DNA from: an uncultured Tenacibaculum sp.
Lineage (GTDB): Bacteria; Bacteroidota; Bacteroidia; Flavobacteriales; Flavobacteriaceae
Reading direction: 5' to 3'
Assembly: GCA_947498055.1 (NCBI GenBank)
Contig: CANMJA010000019.1
Location: forward strand, 4,524 to 68,523
Length of the DNA stretch: 64,000 bases
Shown here piece after piece: positions 11,685 to 38,012 of this stretch. The notes under the pieces were generated by a model. The model saw only the letters and a list, made by a program, of their open reading frames with translations, did not search any database and was not told the DNA's origin. Every line of letters starts with the position of its first letter. Within the stretch, counting starts at the first letter, position 1. The translations under genes and the position numbers were made by a program.

Positions 11685-14132
11685 TTAATTTTCTTCTTTA
11701 TTAATTGGAGCTTTATTATGATAAAATTTAGCATACATTAAAGATAAAAAAGCTTTTATTTCTTGGTAACTTTTCTTCTCTTGTAACATATCAAAAACTC
11801 TTGAAATATATTTTATTTTAAAGTCAATTAAAATTCCTTTATCGTTTAACACATCTTCATATGTTAAATTTTGTAATTGCTTTTTTAACCAAAAATGTGC
11901 TTTAATTTTTTTCTCTCTAATTTTTAAATCTCTTTCGTCACTCTCTAAAACAGCATTCCCTTTTTGTTTTTCTGAAGTTATTAAATTTAATAATCTTGCA
12001 TAATCATTCTTTATACTTTCGTCTAGTAATTCAGCTTGCGTATATAATTCCTTTAAGCTCTTAAAAGAAATTTCATGATACTTGTCTGAAAAATCTTTAT
12101 ACTTATATAGTAAATTTAAATATGCAATAGCAGCCTTTTTATATTTTCTATTACTACTACCTTCATTCTCTCTTAAGTTTAGAGAAAGTAATTTTAAATC
12201 ATTAACTACTTTTTTTAAATAAGTAATCGATTTAAAATCGGCCCTATTTATAAGTTCTAATATCTCGTTACTTATTTTAGTATGACTTCCTTCAAATACA
12301 TGTTCTTTATATGAAAATTGAAAAATCTTTTCTTTTTTAGTTTTCTTTTTTCTTTTAAAATTAAACTTCGGTTTTTTAAATCCAAAATTATATCCATAGC
12401 TTAAAGTTACAGTTAACTCTTTTAAGTCTTCCTGATTGGTTGTATTTCTAAATAACTGAATAGCATTTAAGTTTAAATTATGTTGTTTTGCTATTACTGT
12501 TCCTGCACTAGCTCTAAAGTTTATAACCCCTGTTTCTATAGTTTTATTATTACTTTTATTATAAGCAACTCCTAAAGAGGTATTTAATTTGTTTTTGAAA
12601 AACAGTTTATTAAAATTCATTGCTCCTCCCCATGCGTTACTATCATCTGTACCTATGTCGCTATAATTATAATTTAAGGAAGAAACTATGGTAAAGGCTT
12701 GTTTTGGAAAACCAATGGTATAAGCAGCTGTACCATTATGAAAATTATTTGCTTGTCCTATTCTTATAACTCCATTTTCTTCATTTGCTGAAGAGGCTAA
12801 ATTATAATTCAAATTAATATTTTGTGTTGTGTTTTGTTTTTTAGGAAATATCCAATGTAAACCTATATTGGCATTTTGAGAAAGCTGCCTATAATTTAAA
12901 GCTTCTTGATCTTCATCTGTTAAATCATTATCATTAATATCGTCAAATTGATTTAAATTTCTATTGGTAAAAGATGTAAAATTAGAATACGTTCCGTTTA
13001 ATGTAATTGCATTACTTAATTGATATGTTGCATTTACACTTCCTACAGTTCTTCCTAAAGACTGTCTTTTCTGATTCTCTAAATTATCTCTCTGATACCC
13101 TACATTAAAATCTAGATTAAGTTTATTATTAAAAATAGACGTTGCCAAATTTAATGTGATATTTTCAAAATCGTTATTAAAATAATACGCCCCTAAAGTT
13201 TCATAATTAGGATCTACTCTCTCATAGCCTACTCCTACTTTCATAGACCCAATATTTATATCTAATGCTGCTTTTAATGCATTATAAAACTCGGTAGATG
13301 TTTTATTATTAAATAATAAACCAGCCAAATTACTCGTTTTAATGGCGCTATCCTCAGCTCTTATATCTTTCGTTATTGCAGTAGAGGCATATTCCGCTTT
13401 TATAGTATATTTTTTAGCAATAGTAGTTTCTCCATGCAAACTTATCACTAAATTTTCTTTTGGTTTTATGTTTCTTTCTTCCGGAATTAAAGGAATAGAT
13501 AAAAGATTATCTTTAGCATAAAACCCTATAAGTCCGAATTTATAGTTGGGTTTTTTCCAAAATAATTTAGCACCATACCCTACTCTTTTATAAGCGGGCA
13601 CTGTTTGTTCGTTACCATCATCTTCTGTAGCTTTTAAAAGTCTACCATACATGGCACTAAATTCGATTGATGCATTTGGACGCAACTCAACTCCTCCTCC
13701 TGTAAACTGATGTCCGCTTAGTGTATAAGGAGAAAAATTCATCGTTACATCTCCTATATGCGCCTGTATCCATTTGTATTTAGGATGTAAGCTTAGTCTG
13801 TTAAACTCAAAAGGAAGTTGGTAATTAAAATTTTCTCCTTGATTAGAATAGCTGTATGAAATAGGTAAATTAAAAGATAACCAACTTATATTAAATGTAC
13901 CTTGTGCAAAATAAGTAAAAGGTATACGGGCATTTCTAGTATTTGAATTGTAATACACTGCATTACCATTAATTTTTCCACTAACTTTAATTTTGTTTGA
14001 CTTTAAAATATTATCAAAATCTAAATTTTGTGTATATCCAAAACTTACAGTTAAAAACATACTTATTATTAATATATGTTTTTTCGTTGTTTTTAAAATA
14101 CATTTCTTGTAAATCATCGAAATAGTTATCAA
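11685..14132 (-). CDS. Putative outer-membrane beta-barrel protein with a helical C-terminal extension (last gene of the six-gene operon)
   Basis: Signal peptide; many alternating amphipathic strands ending in aromatics (e.g. LSYGYNF); about 230 aa of charged, helical-looking tail. Confidence 0.65.
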   Translation of the reverse strand: MITISMIYKKCILKTTKKHILIISMFLTVSFGYTQNLDFDNILKSNKIKVSGKINGNAVYYNSNTRNARIPFTYFAQGTFNISWLSFNLPISYSYSNQGENFNYQLPFEFNRLSLHPKYKWIQAHIGDVTMNFSPYTLSGHQFTGGGVELRPNASIEFSAMYGRLLKATEDDGNEQTVPAYKRVGYGAKLFWKKPNYKFGLIGFYAKDNLLSIPLIPEERNIKPKENLVISLHGETTIAKKYTIKAEYASTAITKDIRAEDSAIKTSNLAGLLFNNKTSTEFYNALKAALDINIGSMKVGVGYERVDPNYETLGAYYFNNDFENITLNLATSIFNNKLNLDFNVGYQRDNLENQKRQSLGRTVGSVNATYQLSNAITLNGTYSNFTSFTNRNLNQFDDINDNDLTDEDQEALNYRQLSQNANIGLHWIFPKKQNTTQNINLNYNLASSANEENGVIRIGQANNFHNGTAAYTIGFPKQAFTIVSSLNYNYSDIGTDDSNAWGGAMNFNKLFFKNKLNTSLGVAYNKSNNKTIETGVINFRASAGTVIAKQHNLNLNAIQLFRNTTNQEDLKELTVTLSYGYNFGFKKPKFNFKRKKKTKKEKIFQFSYKEHVFEGSHTKISNEILELINRADFKSITYLKKVVNDLKLLSLNLRENEGSSNRKYKKAAIAYLNLLYKYKDFSDKYHEISFKSLKELYTQAELLDESIKNDYARLLNLITSEKQKGNAVLESDERDLKIREKKIKAHFWLKKQLQNLTYEDVLNDKGILIDFKIKYISRVFDMLQEKKSYQEIKAFLSLMYAKFYHNKAPINKEEN

Positions 14133-38012: not shown

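Follow-up and report, generated by a model that had tools for sequence, protein, structure and literature searches.

By which route do the TANFOR toxins of Bacteroidota leave the cell? These proteins form a polymorphic toxin class of Bacteroidetes established by Jana, Salomon and Bosis in 2020 (Life Sci Alliance; PMC7073777), a published set of weapons with antibacterial and predicted anti-eukaryotic members, and are known from genera associated with fish, among them Tenacibaculum and Flavobacterium. The genomes with TANFOR toxins carry the T9SS, and export through this system was proposed (PMC7073777). The exit route has been a standing question since 2020: no mechanism of TANFOR export is described in the literature searched, as a first-pass annotation of the locus treated here had supposed, and the proteins of this locus go unmentioned in the secretome paper on T. 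maritimum (PMC10288586). The locus lies in a 64-kb stretch of DNA from an uncultured Tenacibaculum sp. (the whole stretch is called the window here), and offers candidates that can be deleted, namely the proteins F, A and B, versus the T9SS acting through protein C.

Organization of the locus

The locus consists of six minus-strand open reading frames (ORFs), A to F, which span positions 11685-38012 of the window (Table 1). According to the ORF listing, the intergenic distances are 13 nt (A-B), 3 nt (B-C), an overlap of 1 nt (C-D), 1 nt (D-E) and 5 nt (E-F), in exact agreement with the genes, coordinates and gaps of the first-pass annotation. The choice of start codon affects two of these distances. 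For D, Met33 (nt 25991) is the probable start; the protein would then be a lipoprotein, with a signal ending in ...IVIYSC and its cysteine at Cys64, and C and D would lie about 95 nt apart instead of overlapping. The probable start of F is the ATG of Met6, and the E-F distance is then 20 nt instead of 5.

Table 1. Features of the locus in window coordinates
Feature	Position (nt)	Strand	Residues	Description
A	33273-38012	-	1579 aa	exported, all-beta protein; without Pfam or NCBIfam family
B	31178-33259	-	693 aa	exported; Fn3 repeats (Pfam fn3)
C	26087-31174	-	1695 aa	SprB repeats, T9SS CTD
C, type-A CTD	26093-26320	-	1619-1694	T9SS sorting domain
D	24600-26087	-	495 aa	three PKD domains (Pfam PKD 3.7e-22)
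E	14138-24598	-	3486 aa	toxin; without Pfam family
E, N-terminus	23159-24598	-	1-480	signal peptide, divergent TANFOR head, one Fn3, conserved ~90-aa module
E, middle region	21599-23158	-	481-1000	conserved, with zincin motif
E, effector array	14792-19546	-	1685-3269	variable; based on internal BLAST and motifs
E, C-terminus	14141-14731	-	~3290-3486	R-S-E ADP-ribosyltransferase-like toxin domain
F	11685-14132	-	815 aa	outer-membrane protein; TTG start as called
F, barrel	12378-13991	-	48-585	~24-26 strands, AF2 model
F, helical domain	11697-12284	-	617-812	tail after the barrel

As read from the translations, all six proteins begin with hydrophobic, signal-like segments, which fits the export signals proposed earlier for every member. 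The earlier domain assignments, that is, fn3 in B, SprB repeats and a T9SS sorting domain (CTD) in C, and PKD in D, are recovered with Pfam and NCBIfam; C matches Pfam SprB (9.5e-52) and Por_Secre_tail (1.7e-11), as well as TIGR04183, and the N-terminus of B is not recognised by Pfam. The annotation had further stated that a single member carries a CTD and that the toxin does not. Both statements stand: neither Pfam, NCBIfam nor a type-A profile derived from 69 CTDs, all from the host genome, detects a CTD in A, B, D, E or F, and this profile matches C-type proteins only. E has a sorting domain neither of type A (TIGR04183/PF18962) nor of type B (TIGR04131) by Pfam and NCBIfam, the type-B screen having covered the six window proteins.

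Unrelated genes bound the block. Upstream are a hydrolase gene in divergent orientation and a locus of GH16/SusC type; downstream follows an OmpA-family gene in convergent orientation. PADLOC defence models have no match at the locus. Scans for sigma-70 promoters and terminators are uninformative, the sigma-70 model not being suited to a Bacteroidota genome; about 24 nt upstream of the first codon of A, GAATTTTG is a near-match to the Bacteroidetes -7 element, which is weak evidence for a promoter.

Toxin E and its exchangeable cargo

Even though the locus had been taken at first for an uncharacterised system, it is a TANFOR-class polymorphic toxin locus, and the supplement of the 2020 study contains a close orthologue of E. 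This orthologue (P0247, from Tenacibaculum sp. M341, 3658 aa) is 81% identical to E over residues 1-480 and is listed in Supplementary Data 1 with a TANFOR domain at 29-162, two ParB_N_Srx domains and VIP2, the same layout as in E (PMC7073777). Residues 1-480 are matched by 160 homologues at 35-84% identity, some of them named TANFOR, such as P0266 and P0359 ('TANFOR domain-containing protein'), and this segment is best regarded as the family-defining N-terminus. Like the published members, E combines a Sec signal and an N-terminal TANFOR-type head with a family of variable C-terminal toxins that includes VIP2-type ADP-ribosyltransferases (ARTs). It differs from them in lacking an immunity gene and in its sub-threshold TIGR02542 score: against the published criterion of an RPS-BLAST match to TIGR02542 at E<1e-7 over at least 90 aa (PMC7073777), E residues 29-152 score 25.3 bits (E 1.2e-5; cut-off 67), or 29.8 bits in the genome search, while homologues of its N-terminus reach 34-38 bits (E 1e-8 to 1e-9). 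A sequence profile of the head finds nothing in the PDB except the Fn3 domain, whose part of the head matches PDB Fn3 domains. The genes reported as enriched next to TANFOR genes (PMC7073777), encoding SprB/CTD (SprB P 2e-87, Por_Secre_tail P 2e-28), Fn3 and PKD proteins, are represented at this locus by C, B and D.

The variable C-terminus expected by the annotation is found as well. Residues 1 to ~1000 of E are common to 119/119 N-terminal homologues, and beyond this point sharing falls to 26 homologues for residues 1000-1685, 35 for the repeat modules, and 11 for the ART end. The C-termini of the homologues with 35-84% identity represent no fewer than 11 toxin Pfams, including ART, ADPrib_exo_Tox, EndoU, Endonuclease_NS_2, deaminases, TNT, AHH, WHH, PT-HINT and Tox-SHH.

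The conserved middle region carries the zincin motif HELGHGAFQLKH at residues 835-846 (nt 22061-22096), whose pattern HE[LVI][GA]HGxFxLxH is retained by 119 of the 120 sequences compared (the 119 homologues plus E itself). Pfam matches of this region to Reprolysin-like families are weak (E 0.006-0.01), and the region is a plausible candidate for a self-releasing protease. A paralogy between residues 380-1000 of E and protein A was considered and ruled out (hhalign probability 0.05).

The effector array contains a unit of about 600 aa twice, at residues 1685-2290 and 2293-2886, with 37-46% identity in the internal BLAST. Each unit begins its set of three modules with a ParB-like one that has the motif DGMHR; the others are a His...Cys module, with the cysteine at C1976 in the first unit and C2573 in the second, and a module of about 230 aa without a name, of which a third copy lies at residues 2981-3269; orthologues of E carry PF02195/ParB_N_Srx. 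The C-terminal domain shows the motifs YRG (3372-3374), STS (3402-3404) and ESE (3452-3454) in the order of an R-S-E enzyme, and by these motifs it is assigned as an R-S-E (cholera-toxin-like, ARTC) ADP-ribosyltransferase-like domain. In a phmmer search of the PDB, the three motifs align with those of the arginine-ART Vis (4xzj, E 0.01), and Tre1 and ExoT are also matched. Orthologues with 60% identity to this domain carry PF01129/VIP2; on the C-terminus of E itself, no Pfam family is found at E<=0.5. Across ten overlapping segments of E, Pfam gives only the weak Reprolysin-like match, leaving the ParB-like, His-Cys, ~230-aa and ART modules unrecognised.

No cognate immunity gene lies 3' of E, and the operon contains no small ORF. 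The four closest Tenacibaculum loci also have no ORF between E and F. Across 46 related loci, 42 have ORFs in this interval, small ones with a median number of three, and one of these is a separate WHH toxin. Since VIP2-type members are regarded as anti-eukaryotic (PMC7073777), the missing immunity gene does not disqualify the locus from the class, and its absence, contrary to most relatives, fits a cargo directed at eukaryotes or otherwise harmless to the producer.

The predicted barrel protein F and the all-beta protein A

The AF2 model of F (pLDDT 78) predicts a barrel that begins right after the signal peptide; its strands were counted in the DSSP strings of the model, a readout that bears on strand number and not on closure of the barrel. 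A beta-signal of the form T..T..Y.Y.F is invariant at the end of the barrel. The family of F comprises 2462 clusters at 50% identity, mostly barrel-only proteins of ~570 aa, and is dark to Pfam: no family is found at E<=1 in 35 members, nor in the helical tail of F or the extension at the N-terminus of one foreign F, and a sequence profile has no match in the PDB. F has neither a POTRA nor a plug domain. In Foldseek, the model matches FimD/PapC ushers, MtrB, SlpA and TonB-dependent transporters (E 1e-8 to 2e-11, TM 0.3-0.44), and at TM <= 0.44 such matches are generic for big barrels. F ranks as a core partner of the TANFOR protein and as the candidate translocon or anchor for it.

A has 373 homologues, all annotated as 'hypothetical'. 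For residues 60-1250, AF2 gives a model that is almost wholly beta (pLDDT 68, pTM 0.44), and its likeness to LptD, MtrB and FimD in Foldseek is only local (TM 0.1-0.2); sequence searches of A against the PDB and Pfam searches of its C-terminus give no match. In the distant genomes G049, G121, G067 and G325, a single ORF encodes the TANFOR head with A fused behind it. A is ranked as a core partner of the head.

Two UniRef homologues of A bear names that suggested an SprA-like translocon. This candidate was rejected: A has no match to TIGR04189/SprA_N, no SprA structure (a 36-strand barrel) appears among the best 50 Foldseek matches, and the only SprA match of the host genome is on contig C5.

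Conservation of the locus across Bacteroidota

We surveyed 401 Bacteroidota genomes with profiles for A, F and the head of E, which were found in 32, 64 and 70 genomes, respectively. F is present in 31 of the 32 genomes with A, and of the 21 genomes with a head match and no F, 19 match the generic Fn3 part only. Wherever F and the head are encoded close together (37 pairs), both genes are on the same strand, with F directly upstream in 36. At 16 foreign loci from the wider phylum, B is adjacent in all, C is found in four and D in one, the absence of C from the other 12 being counted within the span fetched around each locus. A B-like ORF is likewise present at the four loci of the host genome, and in every locus examined B directly follows A or the giant protein. 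The gene order differs by subclade (F-E, E-F, F-A-B-E or A-B-C-D-E-F); of 46 related loci, 35 have D immediately upstream of E, against the single one in the wider sample.

The phylum-wide core, as judged from these co-occurrences, comprises F, B and the TANFOR head, with A in about half of the F-positive genomes. B ranks as a core partner of the head; D is an accessory, mostly of Flavobacteriaceae, and C a lineage-limited one. What is new here is that the Pfam-dark proteins A and F are co-conserved with the toxin. Since the 2020 analysis relied on domain enrichment, Pfam-dark proteins such as these were invisible to it (PMC7073777); contrary to its picture, the phylum-wide partners are F, B and A, and most lineages do without the CTD protein.

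These counts separate two parts of the first-pass annotation. A co-conserved multi-gene unit around a polymorphic toxin without CTD is what the same-strand F-head pairs (37/37) and the pairing of A with F (31/32) display, but the five-gene core it expected does not survive, with C missing from 12 and D from 15 of the 16 foreign loci, and the core shrinks to F, B, the head and partly A. The same absences make a mechanism via the T9SS-exported SprB protein the less likely one. Of the two exporters the annotation had offered, the barrel and/or the SprB stalk, the barrel is very likely part of a dedicated apparatus, whereas the stalk is disfavoured.

F and A might also be unrelated envelope genes that hitch-hike beside TANFOR genes without any functional link. 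The evidence for linkage is genetic, and the differing gene orders of the subclades would agree with this reading, which we nevertheless consider very improbable: all 37 close pairs keep the same strand across many families, the phyletic overlap is near-complete, the head and A are fused in some genomes, and the host genome contains four paralogous loci with the same families, which have diverged in the same rank order, that is, four co-diverged sets within one genome.

A dedicated route, the T9SS or a surface structure

Our preferred reading, to which we give about an even chance, is that F, together with A and B, constitutes a dedicated outer-membrane export or anchoring route for the TANFOR protein. 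This route would resemble two-partner secretion or contact-dependent inhibition in its working. In this mechanism, E would cross the inner membrane by Sec, and its conserved head would then target it to the cognate barrel F. A would dock the head, a role suggested by the occurrence of both as a single polypeptide in distant genomes (a Rosetta-stone inference), and B would provide an Fn3 rod or chaperone. The zincin domain would finally cleave off the variable C-terminal cargo, while C and D would be lineage-specific surface accessories outside the export route. Genetic linkage alone does not equate to translocation of E by F.

Contrary to this reading, the hypothesis of Jana et al. (2020) is a piggy-back on the T9SS, where E, although CTD-less, would be exported by binding to the CTD-bearing C or through an unrecognised signal, and F, A and B would be surface or periplasmic accessories. 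A bona fide type-A CTD in the same operon, the published enrichment of SprB and Por_Secre_tail beside TANFOR genes (PMC7073777), and the frequent order C-D-E in Flavobacteriaceae all speak in its favour. SprA, moreover, is found in the host and in all 64 F-positive genomes of the survey, so that E may depend on the T9SS. This correlation is confounded by phylogeny, however, as 18 of the 20 SprA-less genomes listed, out of 89, are from one family. Furthermore, F, B and the head persist at the 12 foreign loci where the span fetched contains no CTD gene, and no CTD is detected by the one-genome type-A profile in E, A, B, F, the head-A fusions or the distant giants. On balance, we regard the piggy-back as rather unlikely.

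The distant versions of the system point in another direction. They consist of F, a giant protein and B, are Pfam-dark, and have no recognisable toxin or immunity genes; hhalign finds no A-like region in their giants of 2500-4000 aa, including those of the G184 and G323 lineages. Giants of these kinds suggest that the core may primarily be a surface-structure system, in which F, the giant, B and A would build a surface-anchored fibre, adhesin or S-layer-like element, the toxins would be late add-ons, E would stay cell-bound, and the barrel would be an anchor and not a secretion pore. Fn3, PKD and SprB repeats are typical surface modules, and among the folds matched are MtrB-like and LptD-like barrels, which form a sheath around a partner protein. 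In Flavobacteriaceae, however, toxin domains of no fewer than 11 kinds occur behind the same head, and immunity-like arrays lie downstream, so cargo delivery is clearly under selection there, and the conserved zincin just behind the head suggests release. We regard a surface structure, too, as rather unlikely. It overlaps with the dedicated route, since anchoring and export are compatible.

In its strongest form, the dedicated route would be a hitherto undescribed pathway by which Bacteroidota secrete or display proteins at the outer membrane, made of F and B, plus A where present, devoted to TANFOR proteins and independent of the T9SS. The head would be its targeting or docking module, and the polymorphic toxins, at this locus a multi-effector ART toxin, would be its exchangeable cargo. 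We advance this form tentatively, as a possibility that is less likely than not. If the barrel route is true, it would add a new protein-export or display pathway to Bacteroidota, where, to our knowledge, only the T9SS and the T6SSiii serve such tasks.

Comparison with known systems

The architecture resembles that of two-partner secretion (TPS) and contact-dependent inhibition (CDI; CdiB-CdiA-CdiI, T5bSS). Shared features are an outer-membrane barrel gene on the same strand, mostly immediately upstream, and a giant exoprotein whose N-terminal targeting region is conserved while its C-terminal toxin is polymorphic; in relatives, small immunity-like and orphan ORFs form arrays downstream. However, F is not an Omp85 protein: it lacks a POTRA domain and a Pfam match, and its predicted strand number is ~24-26, against the 16 of TpsB barrels. 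E, in turn, has neither a TPS/haemagglutination domain nor FHA repeats, its cargo is preceded by a zincin and not by a pretoxin VENN-type boundary, and the system has two extra conserved partners, A and B.

With MARTX toxins, E has in common its very large size, its export, and a string of independent effector-like modules with a terminal enzyme toxin; the duplicated His...Cys modules, recognised by their motifs, could be processing proteases. Contrary to MARTX toxins, E and its neighbours have no RTX repeats or T1SS families, E has a Sec signal and a TANFOR head, and its family is polymorphic, with C-termini swapped among the members.

FimD/PapC, MtrB and LptD, the best folds for F and local ones for A, suggest that the barrel could pass or sheathe a polypeptide, and the Fn3/Ig-like B recalls the Ig-fold chaperone of chaperone-usher systems. 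The likeness of F to FimD/PapC is nevertheless generic, with TM 0.33-0.39 and 10-13% identity, and F has neither the plug nor the N/C-terminal usher domains, nor any sequence similarity to these barrels; no Usher or PapD Pfam match is found at the locus. As for T9SS cargo, C is a standard example with a type-A CTD and SprB repeats, which E, A, B and F are not, all four being CTD-less.

The locus represents a natural contrast case within the class, with a giant multi-effector cargo, no immunity gene, and three paralogous loci in the same genome, which carry cargo different from that of E.

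The toxin and its class

On sequence grounds, the largest product of the operon, E, is almost certainly a TANFOR-class toxin. TANFOR toxins carry a Sec signal and end in variable toxin domains, among them VIP2-type ADP-ribosyltransferases, and their gene neighbourhoods are enriched in SprB, Por_Secre_tail, Fn3 and PKD domains; their export by the T9SS was a speculation of the authors (Jana, Salomon & Bosis 2020, PMC7073777), and no later paper in the literature searched addresses the export mechanism. Pfam and NCBIfam yielded for E no more than a sub-threshold match to TANFOR (TIGR02542; 25 bits, with the cut-off at 67). 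Its N-terminal region (the head, residues 1-480), used as a query, retrieved 160 proteins of 1918 to 4041 aa with 35-84% identity over that region, two of them named 'TANFOR domain-containing protein', whose C-terminal Pfam domains include ART, ADPrib_exo_Tox, EndoU, Endonuclease_NS_2, deaminases, TNT, AHH, WHH, PT-HINT and Tox-SHH. Residues 1 to ~1000 are common to 119/119 homologues and later segments to just 26, 35 and 11, a polymorphic-toxin signature that bears out the variable toxin C-terminus expected in the first-pass annotation. The closest orthologue, from Tenacibaculum sp. M341 (3658 aa; 81% identity in the N-terminus, 60% in the ART domain), is entered as TANFOR, two ParB_N_Srx and VIP2 in Supplemental Data 1 of PMC7073777. 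Given this entry and the polymorphic pattern of the homologues, E adds a new member to an already described class.

The Fn3 domain of the head matches PDB Fn3 domains, and the zincin motif HELGHGAFQLKH, in a region with weak, Reprolysin-like Pfam likeness, is kept in 119/120 sequences. Each copy of the tandem duplication contains three modules, one DGMHR ParB-like, one His...Cys and one unnamed of ~230 aa. The C-terminal motifs align one by one with those of Vis, an arginine-specific ART (4xzj, E 0.01); Tre1 and ExoT gave weak matches as well. Pfam does not recognise the effector modules of E itself, and their putative assignment comes from motifs and annotated orthologues.

Coordinates of the genes, domains and loci discussed (window positions for A-F and their flanks, residues for E, otherwise positions on the contig or locus named)
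Feature	Position	Strand	Description
A	33273-38012	-	1579 aa
B	31178-33259	-	693 aa
C	26087-31174	-	1695 aa
D	24600-26087	-	495 aa
E	14138-24598	-	3486 aa
F	11685-14132	-	815 aa
E, head	1-480		signal peptide, divergent TANFOR domain, one Fn3 domain, conserved ~90-aa module
E, second region	481 to ~1000		conserved in all homologues; zincin motif HELGHGAFQLKH at 835-846
E, duplication	1685-2290 and 2293-2886		diverged tandem copies, 37-46% identity
E, third module copy	2981-3269		unnamed ~230-aa module
E, C-terminus	last ~200 residues		YRG, STS, ESE motifs
C1 locus	31906-56161	-	A-B-C-D-E-F order; E 2826 aa, weak EndoU-like
C24 locus	29538-59463	+	extra 486-aa ORF; E 2055 aa; four ORFs (240, 150, 466, 419 aa) between E and F
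C21 locus	50297-75808	+	no D; F before E (1026 aa)
Polysaccharide-utilisation-type block	38976-48231	-	directly upstream of operon; two GH16 glycoside hydrolases, CBM_4_9 protein, SusC-like TonB-dependent receptor
OmpA-family gene	10174-11502	+	442 aa; 3-keto-disaccharide-hydrolase-like domain; convergent on F
DUF3686 gene	2023-6876	+	1617 aa; DUF3686 ('ATPase involved in DNA repair', E 3e-182), DUF7902, AAA_5 dynein-type ATPase domain
AT-rich end	58000-64000		GC 0.24-0.27; skew reversed; numerous short ORFs (105-209 aa) on the plus strand
L089 WHH ORF	8870-9910	+	347 aa, WHH/colicin-DNase toxin
C24 ORF run	54379-57049		~400-500-aa ORFs
Extended F homologue (G243:C1, L026)	2545-5022		N-terminal extension

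Operon and flanks

The ORF listing gives the same six minus-strand genes as the first-pass annotation, with successive junctions of 13, 3, -1, 1 and 5 nt that leave no space for intergenic terminators. The probable start of D is Met33, which gives it a lipoprotein-type signal, and that of F is the ATG of Met6; these starts would make two junctions slightly wider. All six translations begin with a hydrophobic, signal-like segment. Pfam and NCBIfam agree with the domain types first reported: B has Fn3, C has SprB repeats and a T9SS sorting domain (CTD), which is of type A, and D has PKD domains, three in number; neither database has a family for A or F. The CTD of C is the only one, being absent from E, A, B and F.

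The flanks are unrelated to the operon. On the upstream side are a divergent hydrolase gene and a GH16/SusC-type block that resembles a laminarin or beta-glucan locus, and downstream is an OmpA-family gene that is not kept beside the paralogous TANFOR loci. The DUF3686 gene, also unrelated, could have a role in defence or repair.

The predicted barrel and all-beta protein

A 90%-clustered collection contains over 2100 homologues of F, inconsistently named 'usher', 'TonB-dependent receptor' or 'outer membrane beta-barrel', and at 50% identity its family comprises 2462 clusters, mostly of ~570 aa; none of 35 members scanned matched a Pfam family, even at a limit of E<=1. The AlphaFold2 model (pLDDT 78) has ~24-26 long strands between residues 48 and 585, followed by a helical domain (617-812), and the T..T..Y.Y.F motif typical of outer-membrane proteins is invariant at the barrel end. 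Foldseek retrieved FimD/PapC ushers, MtrB, SlpA and TonB-dependent transporters, with E values of 1e-8 to 2e-11 and TM of only 0.3-0.44. The barrel first suspected is well supported, as a prediction, as a large outer-membrane one, and it belongs to a family of its own. Some homologues, including several F-like frames of 900-950 aa (G181, G121, G313), have a Pfam-negative N-terminal extension of ~270-350 aa in place of the helical tail.

The 373 homologues of A are all hypothetical proteins. Its model (residues 60-1250; pLDDT 68, pTM 0.44) consists nearly entirely of long antiparallel strands, with local likeness only to LptD, MtrB and FimD (TM 0.1-0.2). SprA, the label of two UniRef entries, is unsupported by Pfam/NCBIfam, a genome SprA search or Foldseek.

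Co-conservation across Bacteroidota

Of 401 Bacteroidota genomes searched with profiles, 32 matched A, 64 matched F and 70 matched the head; F is present in 31 of the 32 A-positive ones. All 37 F-head pairs within 5 kb lie on the same strand, F being directly upstream in 36. A head match occurs without F in 21 genomes, 19 of which match the generic Fn3 part only. ORF maps of 16 foreign loci show a B-like Fn3 gene in every one, a C-like SprB/CTD gene in only four and a D-like PKD gene in one. Thus, from the five-gene core predicted initially, the tight coupling of F, B, head and A stands, whereas C and D are dispensable across lineages; mere hitch-hiking of the genes is very improbable. That CTD and PKD genes are accessory is new from the window. 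The system had also been called uncharacterised, which does not hold for the published toxin class but does for the F-B-(A) module, undescribed in the literature searched.

Piggy-back export of E by the T9SS through C would draw on the published neighbourhood enrichment (PMC7073777) and the universal presence of SprA, but many loci have no C, and we consider it unlikely. A type-A CTD profile from 69 CTDs of the own genome found nothing in the 16 foreign loci beyond the C proteins.

In several distant genomes (G049, G121, G067, G325), head and A share one ORF of 2000-2500 aa. Others have, between F and B, a Pfam-dark giant of 2500-4000 aa with a head-like N-terminus, in which no A region or toxin was detected.

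Proposed mechanism

Our overall reading, a TANFOR toxin exported by a barrel route, stands midway between doubtful and probable, and for the barrel route itself the balance is roughly even. After Sec export, the conserved head would direct E to its cognate barrel F, much as the TPS domain of CdiA/TpsA relates to the linked barrel CdiB/TpsB. The head may be bound by A, since both are fused in distant genomes (a Rosetta-stone argument), B would act as an Fn3 rod or chaperone, and the zincin could set the variable cargo free. Because an immunity gene is missing at the window locus, this cargo might be aimed at eukaryotes or be harmless to the producer. By analogy, two-partner secretion/CDI is the system that the locus would work most like; however, it lacks the features that define such systems, having neither an Omp85/POTRA barrel, as first noted, nor a TPS domain. 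The effector array of E resembles MARTX toxins, but RTX repeats are absent and so, again as first noted, is a T1SS. Likeness of F to usher-, MtrB- and LptD-size barrels is one of fold class only. A surface-fibre or anchor system, with toxins as add-ons and E staying cell-bound, overlaps with the barrel-route reading and is rather improbable.

Paralogous and closely related loci

Four paralogous TANFOR loci within one genome, on contigs C19 (window), C1, C24 and C21, are a further novelty. They contain the same families, except for D in C21, and the rank order of divergence is identical for all families; the E paralogues have different C-termini. The C21 locus ends with three small ORFs and a second, near-identical E head running off the contig.

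The 80 close relatives of F surveyed all come from Flavobacteriaceae, and their usual gene order is C-D-E-(small ORFs)-F. E lies upstream of F in 46 of the 63 informative loci, with intervening ORFs in 42 of these (median three). The first ORF after E encodes a separate WHH nuclease in one of ten scanned, the other nine having no Pfam family. E abuts F, as in the window, only in the four nearest Tenacibaculum loci, where E has at least 2745 aa. Likewise new are a giant multi-effector TANFOR member without an immunity gene and, for the subclade of ~800-aa F proteins, the order E-(immunity array)-F.

In Aquimarina pacifica (L089), the WHH ORF directly after the TANFOR gene exemplifies the 'toxin encoded downstream' arrangement that Jana et al. 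described (PMC7073777). Many relatives (L068, L073, L078, L079, L087), and the own C24 locus, have two to six consecutive ORFs of ~400-500 aa that separate the TANFOR gene from F, one with a faint SprB-repeat match; they form an unassigned family that is absent from the window locus. An uncultured Tenacibaculum (L056) has a toxin-less copy, B-C-D directly followed by F, and in an uncultured Aquimarina (L120) A and B lie upstream of F on the opposite strand.
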